Of a stretch of DNA of 64,000 bases, positions 585-54,639 are shown in pieces (the first letter of the stretch is position 1; each line of letters starts with the position of its first letter). Source of the stretch: a virus. The notes below the pieces were generated by a model. It had not been told where the DNA came from, searched no databases, and saw only the letters and a program-made list of their open reading frames with translations. The position numbers and the translations under genes were made by a program. The stretch lies in UHGV virus genome UHGV-0351052; one strand, 5' to 3'.

Positions 585-645
585 ATTTCCATTTTATTCT
601 CCAAGTTGTTTTCTGTATCAGTAGTTGATATTGATATAGTACCAT
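585..645. repeat. conserved promoter-leader cassette copy (degenerate -35)
   Basis: ccaagttgttttctgtatcagtagttgata...atagtaccat; upstream of ORF 303..518. Confidence 0.5.
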
Positions 646-690
646 AATCAACTACCGATGTATATAGTTTTATGAAAAAAATTTTAAACT

Positions 691-1182
691 TTATGCATAG
701 CGGGCTTTGCTATAGTGTTTAATCCAACTTTCAGGAATGACTTTGTATGTTCCTAAAAATACCGCGTTGTACAACTTAACGCCATCTTCTACCCACTGAT
801 CGGTAATGTATGCGCACATAGCACGAGTACGCCGAGGAAGTGGTTGTCCACCTTCGGTAAATTCGAATTCATAAGGAGCAATGAACTTAATAGCCTGACC
901 GAGTTTCCACTTAAAGTCTACACCTACATGTGAAGTATCAATCGTTTCAATTCCTTTAGCAGGAACAGCTTTCAAAAACGCAGATTCAAGAAATTTCGCA
1001 CGAACATAGCCAAACTGAGGTTTAGACTTTCCATCTTTAGGAATGATACGCACTTTTACTTCAGAATCTTCATCTTTAACGCCATGTTTAAGCTGAATGC
1101 TTACAATTTCAACCAATTTTCCTGCTGCTTTAGAACGGGATTTATCAGATACACGAGCAATTTCACCAATATTAATAATCAT
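691..1182 (-). CDS. hypothetical protein, 163 aa (MotB slot); paralogue of 1259..1804
   Basis: ORF 163 aa; shares C-terminal motif TDQWVEDGVKLYNAV with next ORF; early promoter at 1227-1256 upstream. Confidence 0.45.
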   Translation of the reverse strand: MIINIGEIARVSDKSRSKAAGKLVEIVSIQLKHGVKDEDSEVKVRIIPKDGKSKPQFGYVRAKFLESAFLKAVPAKGIETIDTSHVGVDFKWKLGQAIKFIAPYEFEFTEGGQPLPRRTRAMCAYITDQWVEDGVKLYNAVFLGTYKVIPESWIKHYSKARYA

Positions 1183-1226
1183 AGTTATCTCTCACTTGTT
1201 AAAAAGATTTTATACTCCACAGGACC

Positions 1227-1256
1227 ATTATACTCTGGTCCCAAGAGTTTGTAAAC
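1227..1256 (-). promoter_or_regulatory. T4-type early promoter (-35 GTTTAC, 18 nt spacer, -10 TATAAT)
   Basis: minus-strand GTTTAC at 1256-1251 and TATAAT at 1232-1227, upstream of ORF starting at 1182. Confidence 0.5.
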
Positions 1257-1258
1257 TA

Positions 1259-1804
1259 TTAATTCAAAATAGCTACCACTGCACTACGAGGTACTACGCT
1301 AAAATCACCTGCATGAACAACGTTCAGAAGTTCAACACCATCTTCAATCCATTGGTCTGTTACCCAACCACAGATAGGATTATCAAAAGGACGACGAATA
1401 GACACAGCAGCACACAACAGGTCTGTAGGGTCTTGTTCTTCAACTTCTTGGAACAGGATGAACTCATCTTCATAAACCAGGTTTTTCTTTATTTTGTTAT
1501 TATCTAACCGGCGACCGTGGATGACGTAAGATTTGTCAAACCACTCACTTTTGGCAAATTCTTCAACAATAAATTCGCCTTCGCCAAAAACATCAGTCAG
1601 AGTTTTATGACCAGAAATCAAGGCATTAGTTTTAATTTTAGGTTCAACCAGTTTGTAGGTTTTGCCGATTTCAATAGCGGTAGTCATAGTAGGTTCCTTA
1701 ATTTCCAGTGGTTTAACAGGGCATACATAAGTGCTTACAACATCAAAATCAATCAGCTTAGCTACCGGATTTGGTGTGTATTCAGGATTATAATTAAATT
1801 TCAT
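1259..1804 (-). CDS. hypothetical protein, 181 aa; paralogue of 691..1182
   Basis: ORF 181 aa; C-terminal GWVTDQWIEDGVELLNVV matches neighbour. Confidence 0.45.
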   Translation of the reverse strand: MKFNYNPEYTPNPVAKLIDFDVVSTYVCPVKPLEIKEPTMTTAIEIGKTYKLVEPKIKTNALISGHKTLTDVFGEGEFIVEEFAKSEWFDKSYVIHGRRLDNNKIKKNLVYEDEFILFQEVEEQDPTDLLCAAVSIRRPFDNPICGWVTDQWIEDGVELLNVVHAGDFSVVPRSAVVAILN

Positions 1805-1806: not shown

Positions 1807-2304
1807 TTATCTCATTTCAATAAAATCTACAAGTTCAGCATGCGATTTGCGGAACATTACTTGGTGCCCGCCAATGATAACTTCATCTTCAGGAACTTCG
1901 TATACAGCGAGATAAAATCCTTTAGAAGATAATTCTTCCCGCTCTTCTCGCGTGAACCATCTCATCATATCATATTCGCTAGCGAAAGCAAAATGATAAA
2001 GACCTATAAACCATCCTGGAATATGATATTCTACTCCAACATAATCTTTCTTGAACTTAGTATTAATTACTATATTAGCGTTTTTAACTAATAGTTTATC
2101 TTCGTGTGGTAAAGGAATTCTTTTATTATCGCTATGATGCATAAAATTAGGTCTGTTATAACCTACGTGTAATAGCCACTCTTCACTCCATGAATCTATT
2201 ATACTCCTGTACGGCGTTATTTGAATACAAAGATTTCGACGTATTGTTATAGCATCTTCATTATTAAGAATACTAAAAGATGATTCAACACGATAAATTT
2301 TCAT
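1807..2304 (-). CDS. hypothetical protein, 165 aa
   Basis: ORF 165 aa, 3 nt from next gene; no motif recognised. Confidence 0.4.
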   Translation of the reverse strand: MKIYRVESSFSILNNEDAITIRRNLCIQITPYRSIIDSWSEEWLLHVGYNRPNFMHHSDNKRIPLPHEDKLLVKNANIVINTKFKKDYVGVEYHIPGWFIGLYHFAFASEYDMMRWFTREEREELSSKGFYLAVYEVPEDEVIIGGHQVMFRKSHAELVDFIEMR

Positions 2305-2331
2305 TTTATTATCCTCAGTAGCTATGGTGTT

Positions 2332-2361
2332 ATAATACCATAACTAACCGAGGAAGTAAAC
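2332..2361 (-). promoter_or_regulatory. T4-type early promoter (GTTTAC ... TGGTATTAT)
   Basis: minus-strand GTTTAC 2361-2356, extended -10 TGG+TATTAT 2340-2332; upstream of ORF starting 2304. Confidence 0.45.
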
Positions 2362-2367
2362 AACTTT

Positions 2368-3051
2368 TTATCGTTTTGTTGGAAGAGACAGAGGATCGCA
2401 TTCTTCCTCTGATGGAGCATCTTCGAGACCCATAGCATATCGCAAAGCATACTTCATCATCAGGATGTCTTTCGCACAGTCATGAATAGAATCATGTGCA
2501 ACGAATCCATCTAAAGTTCCCTTTGGAAGAGGACACGTGGTCATATCACGAACAAGCAGAAGTGCTTCAATTCTGGTACGAATATCACGCTGATTCCAGA
2601 ATTTACATGGTTCTAACTTAAATGTATCAAGCTCATTTTCGGAAACGCCGTTAAGACGTTGAATATCACGAATAAGATCGACTAAAATTGGAAAATCAAA
2701 CGACATTCCACGGCACCAGCCTTGAGATTTCCAAGGATCGATATTATGTGCATTGATGTAATCATTAAATTTTGCAATACCGTCAATAGTACTTACATCT
2801 TCATCGGATGGTGCAATATTTTTTCGAGCTTCAGGTGATTGATTTTTCCACCATTCAATAGTGCTTTTAGTAAAAAGACGATGTCCTTTTTGGCTTTTTA
2901 AATCAAATTTGATTTTAATGCCACGTGAAACTAATTCATCAAATGTTTCAACTACTTCTGGATTAGGGTCAAAGGCAATAACAGCCAAATCAATAACAGC
3001 TGCCTTTTCACCGCTTCCCATTGTTTCAAAATCTATAATAAAATCAAACAT
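2368..3051 (-). CDS. dexA: exonuclease A (DexA-like, DEDD 3-prime-5-prime exonuclease)
   Basis: 227 aa; N-terminal IIDFETMG exonuclease motif; directly downstream of dda as in T4. Confidence 0.75.
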   Translation of the reverse strand: MFDFIIDFETMGSGEKAAVIDLAVIAFDPNPEVVETFDELVSRGIKIKFDLKSQKGHRLFTKSTIEWWKNQSPEARKNIAPSDEDVSTIDGIAKFNDYINAHNIDPWKSQGWCRGMSFDFPILVDLIRDIQRLNGVSENELDTFKLEPCKFWNQRDIRTRIEALLLVRDMTTCPLPKGTLDGFVAHDSIHDCAKDILMMKYALRYAMGLEDAPSEEECDPLSLPTKR

Positions 3052-5181: not shown

Positions 5182-5928
5182 TTATCCTCGGATAAGTTTA
5201 AAAATTGAACAATTTAGCGGATATCCTCTTTTCAGTTTAAGTTTATCAATAAAAGACAAGTTTTGATACCGCTCTACACCTTGAATAATTTTATCACACA
5301 TATCATATTGCATTTCTGCTTCTGACAACTTTTTCACAGTTTTCCAATCCGAGCCTTTAAGAAGAACGTTCAATTTAACAACTTCAGCGCCTTCTGCTAT
5401 ACGAGAACCATCAATACGAGCTTTGAGTGCTACAATCGTTAGCTTAATATCAGAGGTTTGTTTTGATTTAGAAAGCTGAGAAATGTGTTCAATTCGGTTT
5501 TCACGTTTTTTCTGTATAGCTTTAATTTGATTATAAGTCTTTTTGATTTTAGCCCATTTCTTTTCATCTAAATTTAGTTTATGAACTTTTTTCGCAGATG
5601 AACGACCAATTCGCAAAGCAAACAAATCACGCTTTTCAATCAACTCTTCTAAAGTATAATCAGAACGAAATGTATTATACTTTTTCTTTACTGCAATAAC
5701 ATTCCCTTTAATGTATCCAACGTTATTATCAAAACGTTCTAATGATAATTTCTCTCCTTCAATACGATTATCAAAAGGTTCTCCCGAGTAAGCGCAAACT
5801 TTCTGATCTAAAATGTTCTTAATGTAATTGAAGTCTAAGTTAAAATCTTTAGAACGTCTTTTAGCAGATGCCTGAGTGTGCTCTAGACGACGTGTAATTT
5901 TACGAATTTGATTTTTAGACAGCTTCAT
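5182..5928 (-). CDS. basic 248-aa protein in the srd slot
   Basis: Lys/Arg-rich; segment CAYSGEPFDN...SLERFDNNVGYIKGNV vaguely HNH-like; assignment by position only. Confidence 0.4.
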   Translation of the reverse strand: MKLSKNQIRKITRRLEHTQASAKRRSKDFNLDFNYIKNILDQKVCAYSGEPFDNRIEGEKLSLERFDNNVGYIKGNVIAVKKKYNTFRSDYTLEELIEKRDLFALRIGRSSAKKVHKLNLDEKKWAKIKKTYNQIKAIQKKRENRIEHISQLSKSKQTSDIKLTIVALKARIDGSRIAEGAEVVKLNVLLKGSDWKTVKKLSEAEMQYDMCDKIIQGVERYQNLSFIDKLKLKRGYPLNCSIFKLIRG

Positions 5929-5966
5929 ATTTTTCTCACATCTTACGGACGATTTAATACTTTATT

Positions 5967-5996
5967 ACTATAACATTTTTACCTTAACTTGTAAAC
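5967..5996 (-). promoter_or_regulatory. T4-type early promoter (GTTTAC ... TGTTATAGT)
   Basis: minus-strand GTTTAC 5996-5991, -10-like TATAGT 5972-5967; upstream of ORF starting 5928. Confidence 0.4.
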
Positions 5997-6053
5997 AACT
6001 TTATGTAAAAATGCTTTAAAAATTTCATGGTATAATGAATCTAAGTCCTTCCA

Positions 6054-6656: not shown

Positions 6657-7288
6657 TCAACTACCTCAATATCATACACTTTAAATGTTCCAAATGAATC
6701 GTGTAATTTTTCTTTTGAAATAGAAGTTATTCTATACTTTCCAATTGGAATCATCCATTCTTGTTCACGCACAATCATCATTAAGTTATCAGTACGTTCT
6801 GAATCTAATCCATCAGTATCTTCATATGTATACTTAAACTCAGTATTAGGAGAAGAAAGTATAATATCGCTGATATGGTCAGAATAATTAAAAGCTTTAT
6901 CAGTTTTTAAGCGAAATATTATTTCAGTGAAATACTCAACATAAGAAAAACCACATGCTGTGAGTAAACTAGTAGTAAATGAATCTACCCTGTTCGTTGA
7001 AAACACTTCTCCAACTTGTAAATCTTTAATGAGTTCTTTTGCCGATTTTGATATACCACGATATAGCTGATAAGGCGATTTAGTTAAATGCTTTTTAACG
7101 ATTTTATTCAACTGCCTATGAAGAGCTTCATTCTTTTTGGCTTCCATACATTGCCAAAGAATTGACTGTTCAAAGTCAGTAAATTTTTCACAGACCTTTT
7201 TATACATATCATATTGAAAATCGACACTTTCAGCTTTTATAGATAACTGTTCAACATCTGCAAGATTAATAATCATGATAGCCTCCAT
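6653..7288 (-). CDS. modB: Mod-type ADP-ribosyltransferase (ModB-like, 211 aa)
   Basis: YRGI, STN/STT and EQEWMIP motifs; tandem with modA. Confidence 0.65.
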   Translation of the reverse strand: MEAIMIINLADVEQLSIKAESVDFQYDMYKKVCEKFTDFEQSILWQCMEAKKNEALHRQLNKIVKKHLTKSPYQLYRGISKSAKELIKDLQVGEVFSTNRVDSFTTSLLTACGFSYVEYFTEIIFRLKTDKAFNYSDHISDIILSSPNTEFKYTYEDTDGLDSERTDNLMMIVREQEWMIPIGKYRITSISKEKLHDSFGTFKVYDIEVVE

Positions 7289-7302
7289 ATACTTCAGAAG
7301 CT

Positions 7303-7332
7303 ATCATATCATCGTTAGAAAGGAAAGTAAAC
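7303..7332 (-). promoter_or_regulatory. T4-type early promoter
   Basis: minus-strand GTTTAC 7332-7327, -10-like TATGAT 7308-7303 with TGA upstream. Confidence 0.4.
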
Positions 7333-7343
7333 AACTTTTTGAA

Positions 7344-7526
7344 TTATTTTGCCCAGGGAGCCCAGGGCGGAGGGTCAAGATGGTATGAAGCTAGTTCTTC
7401 TAGAAGAGCATCTGGGGCTTCAATTCCATAATTCTGTAATACTATACGGTACTCTTTCTTATAATCACTAGAATCATTCTGGATATTCGTAGAATGATTA
7501 TCTTCTAACATCTCAAATAAATCCAT
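7344..7526 (-). CDS. hypothetical protein, 60 aa
   Basis: ORF-track ORF; acidic; no motif. Confidence 0.35.
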   Translation of the reverse strand: MDLFEMLEDNHSTNIQNDSSDYKKEYRIVLQNYGIEAPDALLEELASYHLDPPPWAPWAK

Positions 7527-9175: not shown

Positions 9176-9384
9176 AAAAATCCTCTTTGAAATTCGACTC
9201 TTTGAAATCCACCCCAGTCAGTATATCGCATTTCAGCATTGAACTCGACTGAACCATCTGCATGCATCATGAATGAATGCGTGACGACATCACAATCCCA
9301 GCTTTTCATACCCCATTTATCAGCGATAGCTTTATCAAGAACCTTCTGGAGGTCTTCATTTGGTTTAATCCAACGATTTAACAT
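9172..9384 (-). CDS. hypothetical protein, 70 aa
   Basis: ORF-track ORF; early promoter 9411-9440 upstream. Confidence 0.4.
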   Translation of the reverse strand: MLNRWIKPNEDLQKVLDKAIADKWGMKSWDCDVVTHSFMMHADGSVEFNAEMRYTDWGGFQRVEFQRGFL

Positions 9385-9410
9385 AGCGCTCTCCTCTATA
9401 AGATAATTTT

Positions 9411-9440
9411 ATTATACCATACTCATTTTGGAAAGTAAAC
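9411..9440 (-). promoter_or_regulatory. T4-type early promoter (GTTTAC ... TGGTATAAT)
   Basis: minus-strand GTTTAC 9440-9435, TGG+TATAAT 9419-9411. Confidence 0.5.
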
Positions 9441-9449
9441 CGTTTAAAT

Positions 9450-9476
9450 GAAAAAAGGACTCCCGAAGGAGTCCTT
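9450..9476 (-). terminator. intrinsic terminator after soc
   Basis: minus-strand RNA GGACUCC-UUCG-GGAGUCC followed by UUUUUU; 7 nt past soc stop. Confidence 0.6.
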
Positions 9477-13616: not shown

Positions 13617-13909
13617 TATTCACCTACCACTTCAGCGATGATATTTTTATTATTAAAGTTTTTATCACAATACAGAACATAATTATACTGCATTACACCA
13701 CCAGACTTAAGCTGTTTTTGCACTTCAGCTTTCATTTCAGGACGATCACGCTCAACTATATTCATAATATCTGCTTCAATTTGAGTTTCAACCTCAGTCT
13801 GATCCGCAGTCATAGACCATTCGCACAAATCTTTATCATAACCTGCCATAGCAGGCTGAGCAGCACAAGAAGCTAAAGCAAAAATTGTAGCAAAGATAAA
13901 TTTTTTCAT
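13616..13909 (-). CDS. sp: Spackle-like periplasmic protein (signal peptide, 97 aa)
   Basis: MKKFIFATIFALASCAAQPAMA signal peptide; 97 aa from ATG 13909; ORF-track start 13957 is an N-terminal over-extension. Confidence 0.55.
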   Translation of the reverse strand: MKKFIFATIFALASCAAQPAMAGYDKDLCEWSMTADQTEVETQIEADIMNIVERDRPEMKAEVQKQLKSGGVMQYNYVLYCDKNFNNKNIIAEVVGE

Positions 13910-13938
13910 GATTAATCTCCTCAGTAGTTTATGTTTAT

Positions 13939-13968
13939 ATAGTATCTCAATTTCCAATAAAAGTAAAC
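13939..13968 (-). promoter_or_regulatory. T4-type early promoter
   Basis: minus-strand GTTTAC 13968-13963, -10-like TACTAT 13944-13939; upstream of sp. Confidence 0.4.
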
Positions 13969-13970
13969 AG

Positions 13971-14228
13971 TTATTTTAAAACTTTTGCATAATCACATGT
14001 TACAAACTGTTTCTCTAACTTGACGATCTTACGAAAATACCTTTTACACTGACGAATCTGCCTCTTCGTAGGACGTACAGCAAACTTAATAAATTCCACT
14101 CGACCAAATGGAGGACTTTCTTCTGCTGGAATATCTAACACCAATTCCCACGTATCTGCAATAAGTGCTTTGAATTGCGTATTTTTCCTGATGTTATACG
14201 GCGTAGGTTTAAATAAAACAATATGCAT
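13971..14228 (-). CDS. 61.4-slot protein (TifA-like by position; 85 aa from internal ATG, 99 aa from first start)
   Basis: size and synteny only; basic C-terminal half. Confidence 0.4.
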   Translation of the reverse strand: MHIVLFKPTPYNIRKNTQFKALIADTWELVLDIPAEESPPFGRVEFIKFAVRPTKRQIRQCKRYFRKIVKLEKQFVTCDYAKVLK

Positions 14229-14229: not shown

Positions 14230-14412
14230 TTATCCTCGGCAATCCACTTCACATACTTTCTTGTCATCAATGAAAGCTTTAACTAATGCTTTATTAACTT
14301 CAGCATATTGAGTAGTAGCCCATTGAACGTCATCTTTCATCATTGTGGTTTCTTTAGTAAACATGCTTTCATTCTTAAACCACCCCATAAAAACTACCTT
14401 TACCAATTCCAT
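14230..14412 (-). CDS. dmd: Dmd-like antitoxin-type protein, 60 aa
   Basis: 60 aa, immediately downstream of gene 41; size and slot match T4 dmd (61.5). Confidence 0.5.
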   Translation of the reverse strand: MELVKVVFMGWFKNESMFTKETTMMKDDVQWATTQYAEVNKALVKAFIDDKKVCEVDCRG

Positions 14413-14441
14413 AACAATCTCCTCATTTAACCAACAAGACT

Positions 14442-14471
14442 ACTATACCATAGTCTCGTCAGCTTGTAAAC
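14442..14471 (-). promoter_or_regulatory. T4-type early promoter
   Basis: minus-strand GTTTAC 14471-14466, TGG+TATAGT 14450-14442. Confidence 0.45.
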
Positions 14472-15898
14472 TAAAATTTTAATTCATTTGCCAAAGCATC
14501 TAACTGAGCTCGAGTGGATTCGTTTCTTTGATAGCGATTCTGCTCAGCCTGAATCTGCTGCGAACCTGCTACTTCACTCACTCCAGTTGGAGTAGAATCT
14601 TGTTCAATTTCTACCCATTTCTGATTTCCCTTTTGAACACCCATCAAAAACTTATTCCATTTGTTCTTATCACCATATCGTGATTTGATTTGCTTAATGA
14701 GTTGTTGCTCAGCAGCTGCTAGCTCCTCAGTTTCAATGACCGCAAGCATAAAATCAGCTGTTGCTGGAAGACCAGCAGATTCTGCAATATCGCTCATGTT
14801 AACATCGGAAGAGTCCCAAGCTTGTTTACCAACCTGTGCTGCAGTCCAAAGAACAGTTTCGGTTTCAACAGCCAGAGCACGCAATTCCTCTGCAATAGCT
14901 TTAACAGTTGTGTAACTATTTTCTGAATAAACTCTAATGCGGCAAGATTTACAAATACCTAGATAGTCAACAATAATGATTGTTGGAACAAAATTCTTCT
15001 TGAGCTTTAATTCATTTAAAAGCGATCGAAATGTATTAGCATCTGCTCCACCGGTAGGATACTGTTTAACGATTAAACGACCGAGAGTAGATTTCTCACG
15101 CCATTTTTCCATTTTTCCTTTATACTCAGCGTAAGAAATATGCCCATCATCAATGTCATCAAGAGAAACATCAAGCATATTAGCATCAATACGCTTAGCA
15201 CAGACTTCTTCTGCCATTTCCATGGAAATGTAAAGAACATTATGTCCGAGCTGTAAATAATCTGCTGCCAATGAACACAGACCTAATGACTTACCAACGT
15301 TAACGCCAGCCATTAAAACGTTCAGTGTTCCAGTTTCAGCTCCGCCTTTAGTAATTTTGTTTAGAATTCTGAGTTTAAATGGAACCTTACGAGCTTTATT
15401 CATATAAGATAGCCAACGTGCTTCATAGTCATCCATCCAATCATGACCAACGTAACTATCAAATGAAATTGATAATGCTTGGCGCATGATGTCAGGAATA
15501 GCACCAACATCCGGCATTTTCTTATTTCGTTTTTCCGGAGGAAGCTCAGCATTAGTTTGAATTTCGATTATTTTAGACGTAGCATTAAACATCGCCCTTT
15601 GCTGAACATATTTTTCTGTTTCTTTTACTAACCAGCTATGGTCTTCCGGAGAATCAGCTAGTTTTGAAATAAGTGTTTTTACACCAGAATATTCTGTTTC
15701 AGTAAATGAACTATTTTCTAATGCAACATTTAACGCATTAATAGATGGAACGCTATGATACTCATTGACATGAGATTTAATTAATTTGAATGTATTTTTA
15801 GCTGGACCACTTTCAAAATATTCTGAATCCATATATGGCCAAACTTTTGAAAAATAAGCTTGATCAAATATGAGATGAGAAAGAATAATTTCTACCAC
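14471..15898 (-). CDS. 41: replicative DNA helicase gp41 (DnaB family)
   Basis: 475 aa; Walker A GVNVGKS; DnaB-like architecture. Confidence 0.9.
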   Translation of the reverse strand: MVEIILSHLIFDQAYFSKVWPYMDSEYFESGPAKNTFKLIKSHVNEYHSVPSINALNVALENSSFTETEYSGVKTLISKLADSPEDHSWLVKETEKYVQQRAMFNATSKIIEIQTNAELPPEKRNKKMPDVGAIPDIMRQALSISFDSYVGHDWMDDYEARWLSYMNKARKVPFKLRILNKITKGGAETGTLNVLMAGVNVGKSLGLCSLAADYLQLGHNVLYISMEMAEEVCAKRIDANMLDVSLDDIDDGHISYAEYKGKMEKWREKSTLGRLIVKQYPTGGADANTFRSLLNELKLKKNFVPTIIIVDYLGICKSCRIRVYSENSYTTVKAIAEELRALAVETETVLWTAAQVGKQAWDSSDVNMSDIAESAGLPATADFMLAVIETEELAAAEQQLIKQIKSRYGDKNKWNKFLMGVQKGNQKWVEIEQDSTPTGVSEVAGSQQIQAEQNRYQRNESTRAQLDALANELKF

Positions 15899-19876: not shown

Positions 19877-19886
19877 AATAATTTCC

Positions 19887-20123
19887 TCAAATGCAAGTAG
19901 TAATTACTCCAGTAGTGCTTATGCAGGTATTACCCATTTGCACACCTAAAGATCCATTTGTATTCACATGAAGATTATCATCAATTTTAACTGATATTTT
20001 ACCATTAGTGTGAATAACGGTGCTAGATTTAATCACAGGTTGAGTATCATTTTCAACACTAACAAATGGAACTGCTACTAATGCAACTAAACACACTGCT
20101 AAGCAACCATAAACAATTTTCAT
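19887..20123 (-). CDS. small secreted protein (about 78 aa from ATG; ORF-track start is TTG at 20135)
   Basis: MKIVYGCLAVCLVALVAVPF signal peptide; own promoter 20161-20190. Confidence 0.4.
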   Translation of the reverse strand: MKIVYGCLAVCLVALVAVPFVSVENDTQPVIKSSTVIHTNGKISVKIDDNLHVNTNGSLGVQMGNTCISTTGVITTCI

Positions 20124-20160
20124 TTCATTCTCCAAATCCGTATCAGTAGTTGATAGTTGT

Positions 20161-20190
20161 ATAGTACCATAGAAGAACAGGGATGTAAAC
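20161..20190 (-). promoter_or_regulatory. T4-type early promoter cassette (GTTTAC ... TGGTACTAT, conserved leader)
   Basis: minus-strand GTTTAC 20190-20185, TGG+TACTAT 20169-20161; leader ACAACTATCAACTACTGATAC shared with other copies. Confidence 0.5.
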
Positions 20191-20272
20191 AGTTTTGTGA
20201 AAAATTTTTAGGGAATCCAAAGGGTCCAGAATCATCTCTTTTTCATAAGTATAGATTTATATTACTTGTATG

Positions 20273-20293
20273 AAAAAGGGACCTGGAGGTCCC
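20273..20293 (-). terminator. intrinsic terminator after gene 43
   Basis: minus-strand RNA GGGACC-UCCA-GGUCCC followed by UUUUU; 14 nt past gp43 stop. Confidence 0.6.
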
Positions 20294-34280: not shown

Positions 34281-34410
34281 AAATCATCTGTTTATGTAAC
34301 TTGAGTATAAGATAATAAACTTCAAAACCGTTTACGTAAGTAACACGAACAACATTACCATTAATAAAATAATATTGTCCCTTTTTAATTTCTTTATCAA
34401 CCACAACCAT
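34228..34410 (-). CDS. hypothetical protein, 60 aa
   Basis: ORF-track ORF; early promoter 34441-34470 upstream. Confidence 0.35.
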   Translation of the reverse strand: MVVVDKEIKKGQYYFINGNVVRVTYVNGFEVYYLILKLHKQMICDRAVFSSVAKEIKLHG

Positions 34411-34440
34411 ATTAATTCCTCAAAGGCAATTCATGTGTTA

Positions 34441-34470
34441 ATAATACCACAGTTTGAACTTGTTGTAAAC
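34441..34470 (-). promoter_or_regulatory. T4-type early promoter cassette
   Basis: minus-strand GTTTAC 34470-34465, TGG+TATTAT 34449-34441; upstream ATTCCCTAAAATAATTTCACAAAG element. Confidence 0.5.
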
Positions 34471-34550
34471 AACTTTGTGAAATTATTTTAGGGAATGATA
34501 AGAAGGGAACGATAGCTTAGAATGGTAATATACAGAATGTGAGAAAGAAA

Positions 34551-34563
34551 GGCCCAGAGGGCC
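34551..34563 (-). promoter_or_regulatory. short GC hairpin after nrdH
   Basis: GGCCC-aga-GGGCC then U-rich on minus strand; possible weak terminator. Confidence 0.3.
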
Positions 34564-34567
34564 CGTC

Positions 34568-40338: not shown

Positions 40339-41261
40339 TTCAATACCTCAATAGCATTACGTAAACCATTTGCTTTTGCATTAAGAGCTTTTAACAATTT
40401 GGTGTGTTCTGCAATTTGGGCTTCAACTTCAATCAAACGAGCATTGAGATATTCGCGTTCTTCACTCAGATTATCAGCCTTTTCTGCTTTAGGTTCTTTT
40501 ACAACTTGCTTATATGTATTAGGGTTCTTCAGTTTAATTAGAATGCGTGAACTGTACAGCATTGAACCATTATCTTCGGTTTCGTCATACATTTCCACTA
40601 CGTCCATCATCTCCACCATCGTGCAGAGTTTATAAGACAACGAACGAATAATTTTGTTGTGCTTATTAATTTCTCTAGCTGTCATGGTGCCGAGATTACG
40701 TGAGTAATAATAAGGAACCTGGATATTAATTAATACTGATGAACCACCTGGCTTATGTGTTACTTCATCAGCAATAACCCAGTCCTTAACATGAACTGTA
40801 TTTGTACGGTCATCACCAGCGGTAAATAGTTTGCGAGCATGCTTAAAAAGCATATTCACTTGGGTATTGAATTGACAAGCAAATTTATCAGCAAATTTAG
40901 TTTCAGGAATGGTAGATAACCAATCAGCCAAATGGGTCTTTTTAACATCGTTAACAATAGTAAATTCAACCAAATCGGTTATAGATGTTGTAGATTTAAT
41001 GAAGCTTGGCTTCATAAAGTTTTTAATGTTATCGCGAGCTATAGTAGAAGATAACATACGAGAACGTTTAAACCATTCAAGCAAATTGCCTAACGAATGA
41101 GAATAAGCGTTTTGAGTATCTTTACAGATATGATTTTCCTGGCCAACATATTGAAGGAAATCACGAAGAATATTATTAATTACTGCTCTGTGTCCGATCT
41201 GATAATTGCGGGGTTTAGTAATAAGACTGTCAAAATAATCAATATAATGTTTACGAGTCAT
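40335..41261 (-). CDS. hypothetical protein, about 309 aa, globular N-domain plus C-terminal coiled coil
   Basis: true start ATG 41261 after GAGGAG ribosome-binding site (track start 41312 is TTG inside promoter). Confidence 0.45.
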   Translation of the reverse strand: MTRKHYIDYFDSLITKPRNYQIGHRAVINNILRDFLQYVGQENHICKDTQNAYSHSLGNLLEWFKRSRMLSSTIARDNIKNFMKPSFIKSTTSITDLVEFTIVNDVKKTHLADWLSTIPETKFADKFACQFNTQVNMLFKHARKLFTAGDDRTNTVHVKDWVIADEVTHKPGGSSVLINIQVPYYYSRNLGTMTAREINKHNKIIRSLSYKLCTMVEMMDVVEMYDETEDNGSMLYSSRILIKLKNPNTYKQVVKEPKAEKADNLSEEREYLNARLIEVEAQIAEHTKLLKALNAKANGLRNAIEVLK

Positions 41262-41289
41262 AATAATCTCCTCAGTAGAAAGTAAGAAC

Positions 41290-41319
41290 ATTATACCACA
41301 TCCTTGTGGCAAAGTAAAC
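41290..41319 (-). promoter_or_regulatory. T4-type early promoter (GTTTAC ... TGGTATAAT)
   Basis: minus-strand GTTTAC 41319-41314, TGG+TATAAT 41298-41290. Confidence 0.5.
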
Positions 41320-42341
41320 TAGTTCAGTGCATTTAGTGCATTGTTCAGTTTAGAACGTTGCTTTGTCAGATTTTGAACCCTTGACTGTGCTTGTTCTAAC
41401 GCCTTTTCAGCTTCTAACACTTCATTAGTTGCTTTAACGAGTTCATCATCTACTGCTTTAAGAGACTTCTCAATCGCGTCAGCGTGCCATTTTTCTACAG
41501 GTTTAAAATTTGAATTTTCAGTAGGAAGAAAACTCACTTTATTAAGTTTACATGCATCTATATTGCTTGAGCTATACATCCAAAATTTAGGATCGTTTGA
41601 TAAGTAATTGGATAAATTTAAGTTATCTTGCACTTCCTGCTTTTTCTCTTGCGGGACTTCATCCTTTCTCAAAAAATCATATTTAAATGAAACGATCATA
41701 TCAAGTTCATACGTTGTTGTATGTTCCCAATTTCGCTCAAAATGAGGTAAAATCTTAGACTGAACAGCGGCAACAACATCCATATACTTAAATGCTTCTG
41801 TCAACTGCGATTTAAGGCATTCACAAATTGAAAGAGAATTTTTTGTATTAGGTTTAAAGCTAATTCGTGCAGTTCTGTTATTTTCTTTTAATGGTCTTAC
41901 TTCCATCTGAAGAGTATAACCATCAAATTTCAGGTTCTTTAAGTTAATGTCAGAACCTTTTAATCGACTAGCCGTCGACAAAATTTGCTTTAATTGTTTA
42001 CGGAATAGAGCAATAAATCTCCATTCAATACGATAATGATTTGGATTAAAAAATCCAGATGATAAATCAACCTTACTTTGACCAACGCCTTGAACAAATA
42101 GAGGATTTTTATAATCAATAGTTTTACAGAAATCGGTGAGCTGCTCACGAGCAGTCATTTGTGTAATATACCCTGCTTTACTAAAATTACGCACCCATTC
42201 ACTGCTATTCGTATACTTAAAGTGATGAATAACACGATTAACTTTATCAGGGTCTAAATTATTTTCACACAAAAATGTCATAACATCACGAGTATAACTG
42301 GCATTACGAACCATATCTTCAATTTGAGAACGAGTTTTCAT
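41319..42341 (-). CDS. hypothetical protein, 340 aa, C-terminal coiled coil
   Basis: ORF-track ORF. Confidence 0.45.
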   Translation of the reverse strand: MKTRSQIEDMVRNASYTRDVMTFLCENNLDPDKVNRVIHHFKYTNSSEWVRNFSKAGYITQMTAREQLTDFCKTIDYKNPLFVQGVGQSKVDLSSGFFNPNHYRIEWRFIALFRKQLKQILSTASRLKGSDINLKNLKFDGYTLQMEVRPLKENNRTARISFKPNTKNSLSICECLKSQLTEAFKYMDVVAAVQSKILPHFERNWEHTTTYELDMIVSFKYDFLRKDEVPQEKKQEVQDNLNLSNYLSNDPKFWMYSSSNIDACKLNKVSFLPTENSNFKPVEKWHADAIEKSLKAVDDELVKATNEVLEAEKALEQAQSRVQNLTKQRSKLNNALNALN

Positions 42342-43707: not shown

Positions 43708-44235
43708 TTATGCGAGTACCGTCTTTAACCGTTCTTCAAACTTCCGAAGAGTATTTTGGCGTTCAGCTCTTTGCTTTTTGTAAGTTTCAATACGCTCTGA
43801 AATGAGAGTGTATCGTTCATTTACTGATTCTTTCATAAAATCAGGAATTTCACGAGAAGCTTTAATCTCGTCAAATTTATCAATAACAGCTTGCTCTTCA
43901 GCAATTAAGTTATCATACATCAAAATATCTTTCTTGATGAACTCAATATCTTCTTGAGTTACACGAGATAATTTAGATGCTTTATCCTTTTTGTACTGTT
44001 CGTTAGTATCACGAGACCAGTGTAATGTACGATTTTTATTCGTATTCTTGTAAATTTCTACAATACCAATCTCATCAATAATAACGATCCAATTCCAACG
44101 GGATTTGTAAATTTGTCCTCCATCAACCGTGATTTCACCTCCGATTGAGATGTCATTAAAGAACTTGCTTTGTGCTTCTGATTTAAATTTACCATCGTTG
44201 TAATTTACCAGGTTGAAAATATCTTTAGCGTTCAT
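43708..44235 (-). CDS. hypothetical protein, 175 aa
   Basis: ORF-track ORF; promoter 44264-44293 upstream. Confidence 0.45.
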   Translation of the reverse strand: MNAKDIFNLVNYNDGKFKSEAQSKFFNDISIGGEITVDGGQIYKSRWNWIVIIDEIGIVEIYKNTNKNRTLHWSRDTNEQYKKDKASKLSRVTQEDIEFIKKDILMYDNLIAEEQAVIDKFDEIKASREIPDFMKESVNERYTLISERIETYKKQRAERQNTLRKFEERLKTVLA

Positions 44236-44263
44236 TTTGTGTTCCTCCGTAGTTGATAGTTGT

Positions 44264-44293
44264 ATAGTACCACAGAGGAACGATCTTGTAAAC
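44264..44293 (-). promoter_or_regulatory. T4-type early promoter cassette
   Basis: minus-strand GTTTAC 44293-44288, TGG+TACTAT 44272-44264; conserved leader ACAACTATCAACTAC. Confidence 0.5.
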
Positions 44294-44295
44294 CA

Positions 44296-44610
44296 CTAAA
44301 AGAAACTTCTTTCACAATTTTTTCCACTGAACCAAGCGCTCACTGCTTTCTTAGTCTCAGGAGCAGTGTTATCCATAAACCATTCAAAGGCAGCCTTTTT
44401 ATGATTCTGGAGGGCTTCTCGGGCTTTAATCTGCTCACGGTCTATTAACACTAACATATGAGCCTTTCTTGTCACCAGGGGCTTCTTATGATTTTTTGAA
44501 TACTCCCAATCATTTGTCCATCGCATCGTTGTTGCGAATTGAAATACTGCTTCTTTAATTTTAGTTTCGTAAATTTCACGAGCCTTTGAGTATAACATCA
44601 TTACCTCCAT
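44296..44610 (-). CDS. hypothetical protein, 104 aa
   Basis: ORF-track ORF. Confidence 0.4.
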   Translation of the reverse strand: MEVMMLYSKAREIYETKIKEAVFQFATTMRWTNDWEYSKNHKKPLVTRKAHMLVLIDREQIKAREALQNHKKAAFEWFMDNTAPETKKAVSAWFSGKNCERSFF

Positions 44611-44700: not shown

Positions 44701-45681
44701 TTATTTCAGAAGAGTAACCTCAGCGATTTCTTCCCAACCGTTTTTGTCGGTCATAATGAAGTCAGCAAGATAAAGAGCAGTACGCAGTGAAACATTACGT
44801 AAACGGTTAACATTGACTTTCATCCATGATAATGCTTTATAAGTTTCTTCATCAGAAAGACCACGCTTTTGCATCATGTCGGTTGAAAGAATAACATCTT
44901 CAACCCTGACCATAATTTCTTCATTAGTGTGAACACCCAAATCCAAATAAACTGAGCGGGACACTAATGCTTGTAAATGTGGAGCAAGTTTAGTACCACG
45001 GTCTAATTCGCGGTCAATATCAACGTTTGTGATAAAAACAATCGTTCCTTTAAATTCAAACTCACGCTCAATGCCTTTTTCTTCTAAGTAAGAAGATGCG
45101 GTGCTCCAGCAGACTTTACGGGTCTCTCCGGTGTCCAGAGCAGCTTTCAGAAGATTAAGAATGTCCATATCAGAGAAAACATCCACATCATCAATCAAAA
45201 GGACAGAATTCTCTTCACGATTATTCCAGAGCTGTTCATAAAGACCGATACCAGAGATTTTACCGTTAATGCTTTTATATTCAATGTATCCATTATCATT
45301 TGCTTTATTTAAAGCTTTATCTAAAGAATACGTTTTACCAATACCCGCCGCACCAGAGATAATTAATGAACGAATGTTTCCGTTAATAATACCATTCGTC
45401 ATCATTCCCATAACATTAAATCTTTTATTAATGCGGGTTTTCATATCTTCATATGATTCTTTAACTTCTTCAACTTTTACACCATCATATGAAATGTCTG
45501 ATTTGTAAACCCAAACACCGCGACGCTTACCGTCAATTTCAACAAAAACTTTACCATCTCCTTGCGCATCTACCGGAGCATTATCTGGGAACCATTCGCC
45601 TAAGAGCTCAAAAGTTCCAGAGATTTCTTTACCGAAGTAGATACCCTTATTGATAGTTACAGTTTTCATTTTATTCTCCAA
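44701..45681 (-). CDS. P-loop ATPase (AAA-like), 326 aa
   Basis: Walker A GAAGIGKT, Walker B LLIDDVD, sensor-like ITNV; extra N-terminal domain of about 110 aa. Confidence 0.55.
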   Translation of the reverse strand: MENKMKTVTINKGIYFGKEISGTFELLGEWFPDNAPVDAQGDGKVFVEIDGKRRGVWVYKSDISYDGVKVEEVKESYEDMKTRINKRFNVMGMMTNGIINGNIRSLIISGAAGIGKTYSLDKALNKANDNGYIEYKSINGKISGIGLYEQLWNNREENSVLLIDDVDVFSDMDILNLLKAALDTGETRKVCWSTASSYLEEKGIEREFEFKGTIVFITNVDIDRELDRGTKLAPHLQALVSRSVYLDLGVHTNEEIMVRVEDVILSTDMMQKRGLSDEETYKALSWMKVNVNRLRNVSLRTALYLADFIMTDKNGWEEIAEVTLLK

Positions 45682-45705
45682 TTTTACATTTGTTTTGATA
45701 GGGTA

Positions 45706-45735
45706 ATAGTATCACACTACTACCCTACTGTAAAC
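45706..45735 (-). promoter_or_regulatory. T4-type early promoter
   Basis: minus-strand GTTTAC 45735-45730, TGA+TACTAT 45714-45706. Confidence 0.4.
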
Positions 45736-45738
45736 AAT

Positions 45739-46002
45739 TTATTTTAACGTTCGCCAAATTTTTACTGCTTCACGGCGAGATACTTCTACAGCTCCAAGTT
45801 CTACAGCTTTTTGGCGTCGGCGAGCGTGTAAGTCATAATGTTTAATGCGTTTATCTTGAAACCAAGAACGTTTCATTCCTATTGCTTCTGCCATTTCATG
45901 AAGCTCTTCAATATCTCCATCAGTGAACATATGACAATTTTTAGTTGGATGACCGCGAAGTTTCCATCCATGATTCATTAAAACATCTACGTAAACTGTC
46001 AT
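45739..46002 (-). CDS. hypothetical protein, 87 aa, resembling a prophage-associated domain of unknown function
   Basis: MTVYVD...HMFTD...ELHEMAEAIGMKRSWFQ...HYDL...AVELGAVEV pattern. Confidence 0.4.
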   Translation of the reverse strand: MTVYVDVLMNHGWKLRGHPTKNCHMFTDGDIEELHEMAEAIGMKRSWFQDKRIKHYDLHARRRQKAVELGAVEVSRREAVKIWRTLK

Positions 46003-46148
46003 TGATTCTTCTCCAAATAAGTTTCGATAATTTTCTGAGCGAGATAAACTGCATTATCTTCAGTTGCATCTTCTAAGAAACTTTCAAAACACTCTGAAAT
46101 TTCTTCTGTGTCAATCAACTTTTTTACTTCAATTGGTGTAATTTTCAT
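45999..46148 (-). CDS. small acidic protein, about 49 aa
   Basis: internal ATG MKITPIEVKK...; ORF-track start 46217 lies inside promoter. Confidence 0.3.
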   Translation of the reverse strand: MKITPIEVKKLIDTEEISECFESFLEDATEDNAVYLAQKIIETYLEKNQ

Positions 46149-46185
46149 TTTGTTTTTCCGTTTAAGTGTTTGTTTTGATAGTTGT

Positions 46186-46215
46186 ATAGTACCATAAAGC
46201 TTTATGCTTGTAAAC
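46186..46215 (-). promoter_or_regulatory. T4-type early promoter cassette
   Basis: minus-strand GTTTAC 46215-46210, TGG+TACTAT 46194-46186. Confidence 0.5.
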
Positions 46216-46240
46216 AACTTTGTGAAAAATTTTTGAAATA

Positions 46241-46263
46241 AAAAAGGGAGCCCGAAGGCTCCC
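46241..46263 (-). terminator. intrinsic terminator
   Basis: minus-strand RNA GGGAGCC-UUCG-GGCUCCC followed by UUUUU(U); just past stop of 46266..47279. Confidence 0.6.
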
Positions 46264-46265
46264 TA

Positions 46266-49378: not shown

Positions 49379-49406
49379 TCTCTTCTCCTTGGCAGTTGAC
49401 AAGATT

Positions 49407-49436: not shown

Positions 49437-49438
49437 CG

Positions 49439-54637: not shown

Positions 54638-54639
54638 AG

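Follow-up and report, generated by a model that had tools for sequence, protein, structure and literature searches.

Probable sigma-70 early promoters behind dispersed repeats in a T4-like phage genome, with hairpins across the -10 element and accessory genes joined at some of them

Introduction

On the minus strand at position 20190 of the virus genome UHGV-0351052, a promoter-like sequence is followed by a leader and a gene start, and its elements recur at dispersed positions in the 64,000 nucleotides analyzed here (the window, numbered from its first letter). The locus raises the question of what these repeats are, and of whether they mark the boundaries at which accessory genes are exchanged. 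A link between early promoters and gene shuffling is already known. Comeau et al. (2014, PMC4122927) described promoter-early stem-loop cassettes (PeSLs) for T4 and PST, with TTTACW-N17-TAYWAT as their consensus, and experiments on RB49/phi1 demonstrated mini-circles as well as deletions between PeSLs (Arbiol et al., 2010, PMC2839356). A first-pass annotation of the window had pointed to a resemblance to such cassettes, which was correct, as the motif is that of the T4/PST consensus, and already published.

Results

Probable early-promoter motif and its sites

Matches to GTTTAC-N15-TGGTAYWAT were counted across the whole window, where 10 were exact, 14 had at most one mismatch, and 23 had at most two. 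All 23 were located on the minus strand, and shuffled sequences gave an expectation of 0.69 matches with a maximum of four. Two matches within coding sequences were dropped, at 24795 (gene 44) and 57579 (gene e), which left a credible set of 21 sites, in agreement with the at least 18 minus-strand sites with GTTTAC and an extended -10 that had been claimed earlier. A further site at 7763 was rejected as spurious, having been admitted by an overfitted iterated position-weight matrix. A loose scan for -35 and -10 boxes provided no discrimination, with 62 plus-strand and 69 minus-strand matches.

The hexamer GTTTAC was exact in 20 of the 21 sites, TG at -15/-14 was present in 17, and the -10 hexamers were TACTAT, TATAAT, TATTAT, or TATAGT. 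Conservation was focused on the -35, TG, and -10 positions at sigma-70 spacing. The 18-nt spacer of the first-pass annotation measured 17 bp, the optimal spacer, once the locus at 20190 was read in the sigma-70 register (TTTACA-17-TACTAT with TG). A/T made up 62-88% of the 24 nt that immediately precede the -35 hexamer, with the consensus a.aa.tttt.a.aaA.tt immediately before GTTTAC. An SD and the ATG of a minus-strand ORF followed 26-54 nt downstream of the credible sites, except at the relic P665, where the start codon opens only a 4-codon mini-ORF. The 21 sites are as follows, each named by its position:

590..690, minus strand: P665, a degenerate cassette between motB and cef, with -35 ATATAC, TGGTACTAT, the family leader, an SD, and then a 4-codon relic ORF
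1180..1281, minus strand: P1256, upstream of motB; hairpin GGGACCA/TGGTCC across the -10
2302..2386, minus strand: P2361, upstream of motB.2; spacer TCCTCGGT pairs with the SD region ACTGAGGA (dG -23.7, z -6.9)
5926..6021, minus strand: P5996, upstream of srd; without hairpin
7274..7357, minus strand: P7332, upstream of modB
9382..9476, minus strand: P9440, upstream of mrh.2; UUCG terminator hairpin 9455-9476, 14 nt upstream of the -35
13907..13993, minus strand: P13968, upstream of sp; breakpoint of the relative L051 at 13978-14005
14410..14496, minus strand: P14471, upstream of dmd; 15-bp hairpin with the -10 in its loop
20121..20294, minus strand: P20190, the locus first reported, orthologue of the T4 imm.1 promoter; hairpin, core, -35, -10, leader, SD, and ATG
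34408..34564, minus strand: P34470, upstream of 55.6; GC-rich hairpin 34550-34564, 79 nt upstream
41259..41344, minus strand: P41319, which drives nrdC.3 here and nrdC.4 in T4; nrdC.4 is deleted here
44233..44318, minus strand: P44293, upstream of nrdC.8; family leader; spacer GTTCCTCTG pairs with the SD region CGGAGGAAC
45667..45760, minus strand: P45735, upstream of nrdC.10 and within an inserted module; hairpin across the -10
46146..46264, minus strand: P46215, orthologue of the T4 nrdC.10 promoter; UUCG terminator hairpin 46245-46264, 29 nt upstream
49376..49461, minus strand: P49436, upstream of mobD.2; 15-bp hairpin with the -10 in its loop
50188..50281, minus strand: P50248, upstream of mobD.5; UUCG terminator hairpin 50264-50281, 15 nt upstream
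54578..54662, minus strand: P54637, the regB promoter; spacer TTTTCCTCTTGACTG pairs with the SD-containing CAGTTAAGAGGAGAA (dG -23, z -5.6)
57384..57495, minus strand: P57470, upstream of ipIII; right-hand boundary of swaps at the internal-protein locus
60874..60973, minus strand: P60948, upstream of e.6; travels with the module that replaces e.7
61436..61519, minus strand: P61494; hairpin ATAGGCTCAT/ATGAGCCTAT across the -10
61756..61993, minus strand: P61831, upstream of e.8; strong terminator hairpin 61970-61993, 138 nt upstream

At P20190, the cassette comprises a terminator-like hairpin with a UCCA loop and a U-tract (20277-20294), the core TTTTTCACAAAAC, the -35 at 20190-20185, TGGTACTAT at 20169-20161, the leader ACAACTATCAACTACTGATACGG, the SD GGAG, and the ATG at 20123.

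The window was identified as the Tequatrovirus early-gene region, collinear with T4 5,965-72,498. Nineteen of the 21 sites mapped to an orthologous T4 promoter position, at the genes motB, srd, modB, mrh.2, sp, dmd, imm.1, 55.6, nrdC.x, mobD.x, regB, ipIII, and e.x, where orthology refers to sequence and position, both T4 records being without promoter features. The remaining two were P45735, part of an inserted module and without a counterpart in T4, and P60948, which occupies the same junction as a T4 promoter but differs from it in sequence. Because nrdC.4 is deleted here, with the joint at ACTCGTAA within the first codons, P41319 drives nrdC.3.

The middle promoters of T4, which depend on MotA, carry the box (a/t)(a/t)(a/t)TGCTTtA centred at -30, replacing the -35. 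That class was ruled out for the 21 sites, which carry GTTTAC at -35 and not a MotA box. MotA-box-like sequences were observed at other junctions, such as 31161-31268 and 10647-10707.

Copies of a longer cassette

A sharing of upstream and leader sequences beyond the promoter boxes had also been reported. Within the window, the 25-mer upstream element had only one match at up to three mismatches, and the 23-mer leader had three. The shorter upstream core TTTTTCACAAAAC was found without mismatches at 20190 and 61831, with one at 665, two at 46215, and four at 34470, while the leader ACAACTATCAACTAC was free of mismatches at 20190, 61831, and 44293 and had three at 665 and four at 46215. Over 85 nt, pairwise identity was 80% for 20190/61831, 72% for 665/61831, and 67% for 665/20190, with 51-65% for the other pairs; the cassettes at 20190 and 61831 were 90% identical over 73 nt. 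Three to six sites are paralogous copies of one cassette of ~85-100 nt, composed of the upstream core, the promoter, and the leader ACAACTATCAACTAC...GGAGAATRAAATG. The extended sharing held as long homology only for 20190, 61831, and 665, and was one-sided for 44293, 46215, and 34470.

Hairpins upstream of the promoters and across the -10

On the minus strand of the window, 10 UUCG hairpins were GC-rich and had a stem of 6 bp or more. A UUCG hairpin was located directly upstream of the promoter at three of the 21 sites (9455-9476, 46245-46264, and 50264-50281), and a terminator-like hairpin with any loop was within 120 nt upstream of five. The UUCG hairpins were rejected as the stem-loop partner of the promoters, as seven of the 10 strong ones were at junctions without an early promoter. 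The earlier statement that many sites sit beside UUCG-loop hairpins thus appeared weak, applying to 3/21 promoters, and the hairpin of the reported locus itself has a UCCA loop.

A different hairpin was formed by the promoters themselves, where the spacer is complementary to its own transcribed leader, which places the -10 in the loop and often buries the SD. The 52-nt window of spacer, -10, and leader had a mean folding energy of -12.8 kcal/mol, compared to -6.7 in random windows and to -6.1 in regions ahead of genes that lack a promoter of this type (p=8e-5). A fold of -10 kcal/mol or lower across these elements was found at 14 of the 21 sites and in 15% of the random windows, and dinucleotide shuffling gave z < -2 at 10/21 sites; seven sites were without a -10-spanning hairpin. 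The stem-loop of the cassettes is mostly the -10-spanning hairpin and not the UUCG hairpin of the first-pass annotation.

The spacers paired preferentially with their own leader rather than with those of other promoters, with z=-5.5 in the window, -8.6 among 54 promoters of other T4-like genera, and -7.1 among 13 regB orthologues. In the minimum-energy fold, the SD was paired with the promoter spacer at 5/18 sites of the window and 18/48 sites of other genera, and anti-SD 4-mers were enriched in the spacers. P14471 and P49436 are paralogues with compensatory changes between them. For regB, the pairing of spacer and leader was kept by covariation and compensatory changes in other genera, down to 43% protein identity. 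No pairs were predicted by RNAalifold on a MAFFT alignment of the regB promoter orthologues, because the position of the SD shifts between lineages. The sense strand folded more stably than the antisense strand in the window (-12.8 vs -8.2) but not in other genera (-10.1 vs -9.8); hence, selection on the hairpin may act at either the RNA or the DNA level.

Accessory modules joined at the cassettes

Segments flanked by the cassettes were compared across relatives, as the first-pass annotation had proposed. Three modules were searched for among ~500 close relatives:

19877..20115, minus strand: 78-aa accessory ORF (phrog_4189) between the P20190 start codon and imm.1; not in T4
45682..46174, minus strand: variable module of two small ORFs (phrog_4887 and phrog_6888) and P45735, between the P46215 leader (ACAACTATCAA) and the nrdC.10 SD
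60894..61442, minus strand: 172-aa ORF (phrog_6869, RB32ORF130c-like) that replaces T4 e.7, with joints at P61494 and e.6

All three were variable and not invariant, each present in about 21-64% of the ~500 relatives: the first was found in 317, the second was complete in 155, and the third was found in 106. The 45682-46174 module was absent from T4, RB32, RB10, sb4, and KNP5. Module joints fell in the cassette leader, the SD or ATG, or at the base of a hairpin. For example, the 60894-61442 module begins just after the -10 hairpin of P61494 and ends just before the e.6 SD. Promoters on both sides, with joints inside the cassettes, were observed for the modules at 45682-46174 (P46215 and P45735) and 60894-61442 (P61494 and P60948). 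Some joints consisted of an 8-nt microhomology in coding starts and not of promoter homology, as in ATGAAAAT, where the 78-aa ORF is joined, and ACTCGTAA.

At the ipIII locus (56771-57486), other internal-protein genes take its place in relatives, with right-hand joints in the P57470 cassette and left-hand joints at a non-promoter hairpin (56791-56808); the regions upstream of T4 ipII and ipIII cross-match at 73%. Additionally, L051 has 206 extra nt exactly at 586-588, beside P665, and in four relatives an insertion of 0.5-1.2 kb is repeatedly joined at the hairpin 61970-61993.

Breakpoints at promoter and other junctions

The sites had also been taken to mark the boundaries of accessory modules. 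A panel of ~12 relatives was examined for breakpoints of indels and replacements. This panel was drawn mainly from GenBank records, IMG/VR having contributed only ~5 close relatives per anchor, with fewer genomes compared over the left half of the window than over the right. Breakpoints occurred at 10 of the 21 promoter junctions vs 39 of the 110 non-promoter junctions (Fisher p=0.33). When only intergenic gaps of at least 40 nt were counted, breakpoints occurred at 9/19 promoter and 14/29 other gaps (p=1.0). The automatic gene model had misplaced several starts and thereby created false gaps of >130 nt in the control set; hence, gaps of 40-130 nt were recounted by hand with these artefacts removed, which gave 9/19 vs 9/19. 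Compared to random positions, the promoters were enriched for breakpoints, with 14 against 5.5, an excess that arises because promoters lie in intergenic regions. Eleven of the 21 promoters were without a breakpoint in the panel. Many other boundaries coincided with a terminator hairpin, a motif similar to middle promoters, or a homing-endonuclease gene, and homing endonucleases or introns accounted for many indels.

In the panel of ~12 relatives, boundaries of variable genes were as frequent at other intergenic control regions as at the promoters. The claimed boundary role was retained for individual modules with joints in the cassettes, but was not evident in this panel as a general property of the sites.

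Discussion

The repeats are very probably strong sigma-70 immediate-early promoters (Pe) of a T4-like phage (probability about 0.88), and are read here as promoters first and permissive boundaries second, rather than as a dedicated recombination system. Each would comprise four parts, namely a UP-element-like A/T-rich tract, GTTTAC at -36 to -31, a 17-bp spacer, and the extended -10 TGnTAYWAT, followed by a short leader that includes the SD and by an early gene's start codon. In T4, host RNA polymerase, either unmodified or modified by Alt, initiates at such promoters within minutes of infection. Promoter activity at the 21 sites is deduced here from orthology and consensus. Sequence, strand, spacing, the place before SD and ATG, and the 19 T4 orthologues all agree with the early-promoter identity assigned in the first pass. 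The sites resemble the Pe promoters of T4 in the GTTTAC -35, the TGn, the TAnnAT -10, and the A-rich upstream tract, and point in the direction of early transcription, ahead of early genes and novel ORFs. No difference of substance was found, except that P45735 and P60948 sit in modules that are missing from T4 or present there in a different form. Hinton (2010, PMC2988021) and Nolan et al. (2006, PMC1524935) give the same consensus and layout for the early promoters of T4, and the regB promoter was called a typical early promoter by Uzan and Miller (2010, PMC3014915).

Dispersed copies, some with extended similarity, might also be expected of a chance motif or of a mobile MITE- or REP-like element without a role in transcription. 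This reading is effectively refuted, because the 23 matches, with their complete strand bias, far exceed the 0.69 expected, the sites correspond by orthology to known promoter positions in T4, and they precede an SD and ATG at a fixed distance; it is further opposed by the conservation of the -35, TG, and -10 at sigma-70 spacing, and neither terminal inverted repeats nor target duplications were seen. Alternatively, the cassettes could be active recombination elements, in which homologous or site-specific exchange, possibly via mini-circles, is the main driver of accessory-gene turnover, so that promoters specifically mark module boundaries. The two modules bracketed by promoters with joints inside the cassettes (45682-46174 and 60894-61442), the variation of modules across the population, the 80-90% identity of cassette copies over 73-85 nt, and the mini-circles and deletions between PeSLs in RB49/phi1 (PMC2839356) are all in its favor. 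It nevertheless appears rather doubtful, given that breakpoints were not enriched at promoter junctions over others and that 11/21 promoters had none in the panel. For the majority of promoter pairs, similarity is confined to the -35 and -10 boxes (51-65% identity), which is not enough for homologous exchange; several joints are no more than an 8-nt microhomology at a coding start, and no recombinase is implicated.

The role of the -10-spanning hairpin can likewise be read in two ways. Tentatively, T4-type early promoters may generally be built inside a hairpin that hides the translation start in read-through RNA and leaves locally started RNA open. The hairpin would form only in RNA reading through from upstream and, with the SD buried in about one third of the sites, the first ORF there would be translated only from transcripts begun at its own promoter. 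Such cassettes would be translationally autonomous and independent of context, expressed only in the immediate-early window, which could make them safely portable. The same layout is known from e, soc, 49, and I-TevI, where the promoter occupies the loop or the 5' arm and the 3' arm carries the SD, and where long read-through transcripts hide the translation start that locally started transcripts leave open (PMC3014915). That review lists a promoter inside a hairpin as a gate only for late promoters, where it delays expression. In contrast, an early promoter is embedded here, and the arrangement is widespread, with a hairpin at about two thirds of the sites and putative SD sequestration at about one third. 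The PeSL papers (PMC2839356, PMC4122927) interpret stem-loops as terminators, and the -10-spanning hairpins would then be terminators or attenuators of upstream transcripts and not translational gates. One RB49/phi1 PeSL stem-loop did cut downstream lacZ expression to the same degree as the rrnB T1 terminator (PMC2839356), and the hairpins here are stable, at -15 to -24 kcal/mol. However, their 3' arms are without following U-tracts. A single one (41294-41311, P41319) reached even a loose threshold of 5 T in 8 bases, and the remaining terminator-like hairpins near promoters are all upstream of the -35. Termination also seems unlikely in view of the 3' arm, which is the SD in about one third of the sites, with the anti-SD right after the -35; the regB SD pairing is conserved by covariation down to 43% protein identity, and SD pairing fits the known start sequestration at e, soc, 49, and I-TevI.

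Under the preferred reading as early promoters, the link to shuffling would be permissive. The cassettes are all at gene starts and share short identical stretches (leader, SD, and ATGAAAA), and may therefore offer portable patches of homology and safe joints. Several insertions, deletions, and swaps of small accessory ORFs were joined inside or directly beside a cassette, which fits the published PeSL model. The cassettes resemble PeSLs (Arbiol et al., 2010, PMC2839356; Comeau et al., 2014, PMC4122927) as composites of early promoter, stem-loop, and SD-ATG that are often beside small ORFs of unknown function and at some indel or replacement joints. They differ in that the T4/PST stem-loops are just upstream of the promoter (2014 figure legend), while the dominant stem-loop here spans the -10, as in the RB49/phi1 class, and in being no more breakpoint-prone than other junctions in the panel. 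The ipIII swaps are similar to those of T-even internal-protein genes, described as flanked by ~70 bp homologies (Repoila et al., 1994, as cited in PMC2839356 and PMC4122927), except that the left-hand joints here are at the non-promoter hairpin 56791-56808. As with morons or integron-like gene cassettes, small accessory ORFs are carried together with a promoter of their own and, in some cases, a terminator. In contrast to those systems, there is neither an integrase nor an attC site, the orientation is that of the surrounding genes, and the joints use shared regulatory sequence or microhomology.

For annotation, the sites fix the early transcription units and name small accessory modules of this genome. 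With other gene junctions as the null, the promoters are no special hot spots in the panel, which calls for care with a strong model of PeSL-driven shuffling. If functional, the complementarity of spacer and leader would extend the classic translational control of T4 from a few late genes to much of the early set, and would explain how promoter-ORF cassettes are insulated from their genomic context.

Early promoters of the T4 type

The window was AT-rich (GC 31-38%), with a negative GC skew throughout and all genes on the minus strand. By megablast, 495 phage records covered at least 80% of 18000-24000, where the best matches, Tequatrovirus isolates including 235Ecol030PP and HP3, were approximately 98% identical. 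By local BLAST, T4 (NC_000866, 5,965-72,498) was collinear with the entire window at approximately 95% identity, and this collinearity was broken by 20 indels or replacements. The T4 collinearity and Tequatrovirus matches identify the window, at the level of sequence, as the early and middle, counter-clockwise region that runs from goF/cef to the tRNA cluster in a T4-like genome.

Features of the reported locus, in order on the minus strand
20294-20277, terminator-like hairpin AGGGACC-UCCA-GGUCCCU, then UUUUUCA
Between the hairpin and GTTTAC, tract ATTCCCTAAAAATTTTTCACAAAAC
20190-20185, GTTTAC (-35), followed by a 15-nt gap
20169-20161, TGGTACTAT, after the gap
Downstream, leader ACAACTATCAACTACTGATACGG, then GGAG, then ATG at 20123

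The motif GTTTAC-N15-TGGTAYWAT had 10 exact matches in the window, 14 at up to one mismatch, and 23 at up to two, all on the minus strand. With 0.69 matches expected and a maximum of four in shuffled sequences, the shared minus-strand motif described by the first-pass annotation is real and highly non-random. Two matches, 24795 and 57579, were dropped as they fell within coding sequence, and 21 credible sites remained. Their consensus was a.aa.tttt.a.aaA.tt GTTTAC at.c.......a.ta TGgTAttAT a...ctaT.aa, with an exact GTTTAC in 20 sites, TG in 17, and a spacer of 17 bp in the sigma-70 register. A Shine-Dalgarno (SD) sequence and an ATG were found 26-54 nt downstream of every site, where the start codon of P665 opens a 4-codon relic ORF only. 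The near-consensus motif at 57550-57579 (GTTAAC-N15-TGGTATAAT) lies 110 nt upstream of P57470, within the coding sequence of e (lysozyme), and may be a second ipIII promoter or have arisen there by chance.

Credible early promoter sites (minus strand), named by the position of the G in the -35, with the downstream gene
P665, relic ORF
P1256, motB
P2361, motB.2
P5996, srd
P7332, modB
P9440, mrh.2
P13968, sp
P14471, dmd
P20190, imm.1
P34470, 55.6
P41319, nrdC.4 (nrdC.3 in the window)
P44293, nrdC.8
P45735, module-specific
P46215, nrdC.10
P49436, mobD.2
P50248, mobD.5
P54637, regB
P57470, ipIII
P60948, e.6 (only the junction in common with T4)
P61494, e.7
P61831, e.8

For 19 of the 21 sites, an orthologous promoter was found upstream of known T4 early genes. 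The consensus also matched published T4 early promoters, described as a strong UP/-35/TGn/-10 in which additional positions are conserved (Hinton, 2010; PMC2988021) and as GTTTAC (-36 to -31) plus an A-rich tract (-40 to -44), preceding conserved early genes and novel ORFs alike (Nolan et al., 2006; PMC1524935); the regB promoter is a typical example (PMC3014915). Given these descriptions, the first-pass call of early promoters was correct, and the elements are, as judged by sequence, T4-type early promoters that were already known.

The likeness to promoter-early stem-loops (PeSLs) was also rightly drawn, but it had already been published for T4-type and T-even phages. PeSLs were first defined in RB49/phi1, where experiments demonstrated promoter and terminator activity as well as mini-circle formation (Arbiol et al., 2010; PMC2839356). 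The concept was carried to the T4/PST pair with the motif TTTACW-N17-TAYWAT (Comeau et al., 2014; PMC4122927), which is exactly the motif of the window, and similar homologies at the internal-protein loci are credited to Repoila et al. (1994) (PMC2839356, PMC4122927). The RB32 GenBank record annotates a "34 bp imperfect direct repeat" and a "43 bp direct repeat" as flanking ORFs. From the T4/PST motif and the RB32 annotations, the PeSL concept is therefore already published for the phage group of the window.

Extent of the shared cassette

Two further details, the sharing of an extended cassette (upstream core, promoter, and leader) among six sites and the placement of many sites beside UUCG hairpins, were overstated. 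Whole-cassette likeness was confined to P20190, P61831, and P665 (67-80% over 85 nt; 90% over 73 nt between P20190 and P61831). The sharing was partial in the others: the leader alone in P44293, the upstream core plus a portion of the leader in P46215, and a weak upstream core alone in P34470. The proposed 25-mer had one match and the 23-mer three (up to three mismatches). Only three of the 10 GC-rich UUCG hairpins on the minus strand were immediately upstream of a promoter, and five of the 21 promoters had a terminator-like hairpin, whatever its loop, within 120 nt upstream.

A family of GC-rich UUCG-tetraloop hairpins with the core GGGCUUCGGCCC occurred at junctions without an early promoter (23062-23079, 25230-25251, 29942-29961, 31213-31232, 33585-33600, 60262-60277, and 16188-16207). 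Several were followed by a MotA-box-like sequence with a -10, and those at 23062 and 31213 adjoin indel joints. In the relic cassette P665 (578-665), the -35 is degenerate (ATATAC), the family leader is complete, and an SD and the mini-ORF ATG GAA ATT CGC TAA follow. A related locus, L051, has 206 extra nt exactly at this relic, suggesting loss of an ORF with retention of its promoter.

Breakpoints and module boundaries

Breakpoints were called in 26 loci from approximately 12 related genomes (T4, 235Ecol030PP, HP3, KNP5, RB32, RB10, sb4, and IMG/VR contigs) after chaining collinear BLAST segments, yielding 57 distinct events and 84 distinct breakpoints against the window. Fourteen breakpoints lay within 100 nt of a -35, compared to 5.5 expected at random positions, because promoters and breakpoints are both intergenic. 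Among junctions, those with promoters showed no significant enrichment of breakpoints across the approximately 12 genomes (10/21 with a breakpoint versus 39/110 others; Fisher p=0.33), nor did they among intergenic gaps of at least 40 nt (9/19 versus 14/29) or after gene-model artefacts were removed by hand (9/19 versus 9/19). The other breakpoint junctions mostly contained a middle-promoter-like motif (MotA-box-like plus -10), a terminator hairpin, or both (for example, 10647-10707, 23003-23081, 31161-31268, and 32657-32735), and the remainder involved homing-endonuclease genes or an intron (segF, segA, mobB, mobC, mobD, I-TevII, and, at 44693, a seg-like insert, among others). Hence, the proposal that the promoters mark module boundaries held for about half of them, which did so no more than other regulatory junctions.

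Many of the differences that set the window apart from T4 and other relatives were gains and losses of homing-endonuclease genes (segF, segA, mobB, mobC, mobD, and seg-like) and of the nrdD intron together with I-TevII (9664-10166, 17414-18361, 31152-31177, 35958-35978, 37270-37273, 44693-44720, and 47280-48261). Mosaicism of this kind has its own source, unrelated to the promoters.

Cases with joints at cassettes
45682-46174, module A, two small ORFs and P45735, between the P46215 -10/leader (to ACAACTATCAA) and the nrdC.10 SD GGAGAATAAAATG
19877-20115, module B, 78-aa ORF and new SD, insertion point precisely the shared ATGAAAAT of imm.1
41242-41274, case C, nrdC.4 deletion at the 8-nt microhomology ACTCGTAA, first codons of nrdC.4/nrdC.3
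60894-61442, module D, unrelated 172-aa ORF in place of T4 e.7

All four cases fit the PeSL picture. The site of module A is an uninterrupted hybrid in T4 and seven other comparator loci. Module D has its joints at the base of the P61494 hairpin and just before the e.6 SD, and the downstream promoter P60948 travels with it. In case C, the promoter, SD, and ATG of nrdC.4 were joined to nrdC.3, which therefore came under the nrdC.4 promoter, while nrdC.4 was kept in seven comparator loci. Full-length matches to modules A, B, and D were found in 155, 317, and 106 records, respectively, versus roughly 500 close relatives. Across the population, these modules are accessory; invariance, which would have refuted the first-pass idea, was not observed, so the module-variability part of that idea survives. 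All of their proteins belong to PHROG families of unknown function.

Other variable units were also observed. Between gene 49 and pin, a 58-aa ORF (38321-38497) is bracketed by a 63-nt direct repeat (38304-38366 and 38517-38579, 81% identical) that lacks a strict early promoter; this unit is absent in T4 and HP3, whose breakpoints are at the repeat, and 38304-38579 is thus a repeat-bounded module independent of the early-promoter motif. A strong terminator hairpin with a U-tract at 61970-61993 (AGCCCCGACC-GAAA-GGTTGGGGCT) is the overlapping joint (30-36 nt shared) of a 0.5-1.2 kb insertion at 61961-61996 in 235Ecol030PP, KNP5, RB32, and sb4, where the RB32 record describes the inserted ORF as flanked by the 34 bp repeat. 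T4 denV and ipII are missing from the window (56771-56802; T4 64938-65825). The internal-protein slot holds ipIII in the window and other internal-protein genes (Ip4 and others) in relatives, with its left-hand joints at a small hairpin, 56791-56808.

Complementarity of promoter spacer and leader

When folded from the -35 to the ATG, 10 of the 21 sites formed a strongly non-random hairpin (z < -2; approximately -4 or lower in eight), with the promoter spacer as the 5' arm, the -10 hexamer as the loop, and approximately the first 15 or more transcribed nt as the 3' arm (for example, 54578-54638, 2302-2361, 14410-14471, 49376-49436, and 61436-61494). The mean fold over a fixed 52 nt was -12.8 kcal/mol at the sites, versus -6.7 in random windows and -6.1 upstream of genes without an early promoter (Mann-Whitney p=8e-5), and folds of -15 or lower were found in 48% of sites versus 3% of random windows. 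In other T4-like genera, where all 99 motif matches were on the gene-sense strand, 28% of 54 non-redundant promoter-like sites reached this level versus 3% of controls (p=0.001). An advantage of the sense strand was present in the window (-12.8 versus -8.2) and absent in the other genera. By duplex energy, spacers paired better with their own leaders than with those of other sites (z=-5.5 in the window, -8.6 in other genera, and -7.1 in 13 regB promoter orthologues). The promoter spacer is thus specifically complementary to its own transcribed leader across the early promoters of the window, and this holds in other T4-like genera (loci L010-L044).

The pairing extended to the SD, which was buried by the hairpin in about a third of sites. 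Spacers were enriched for anti-SD 4-mers (29% versus 5.5% in the window, p=7e-4; 17% versus 6.5% in other genera, p=7e-3), and the minimum-energy fold paired the SD with the spacer in 5 of 18 window sites and in 18 of 48 from the other genera. GTTTAC of the regB promoter is immediately followed by an anti-SD (CTCC or CCTC), which pairs with the SD in lineages as distant as 43% RegB identity, and the adjoining stem shows compensatory changes (CTTGACTG:CAGTTAAG, CTAGTTG:CAACTAG, TGTAAG:CTTACA, and CATTTG:CAAATG).

Stem-loops "overlapping the -10 box" were already noted in RB49/phi1 and read as terminators or attenuators (Arbiol et al., PMC2839356). That reading is unlikely for the hairpins described here, as the terminator scan found no U-tracts at -10-spanning hairpins except for one marginal case (41294-41311). 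From this lack of U-tracts, we infer that the spacer-leader hairpins would not be intrinsic terminators but would act on read-through RNA, in which alone they would form, on the model of T4 e, soc, 49, and I-TevI (PMC3014915). The spacer-leader complementarity may merit follow-up as a possible translational insulator of early cassettes.
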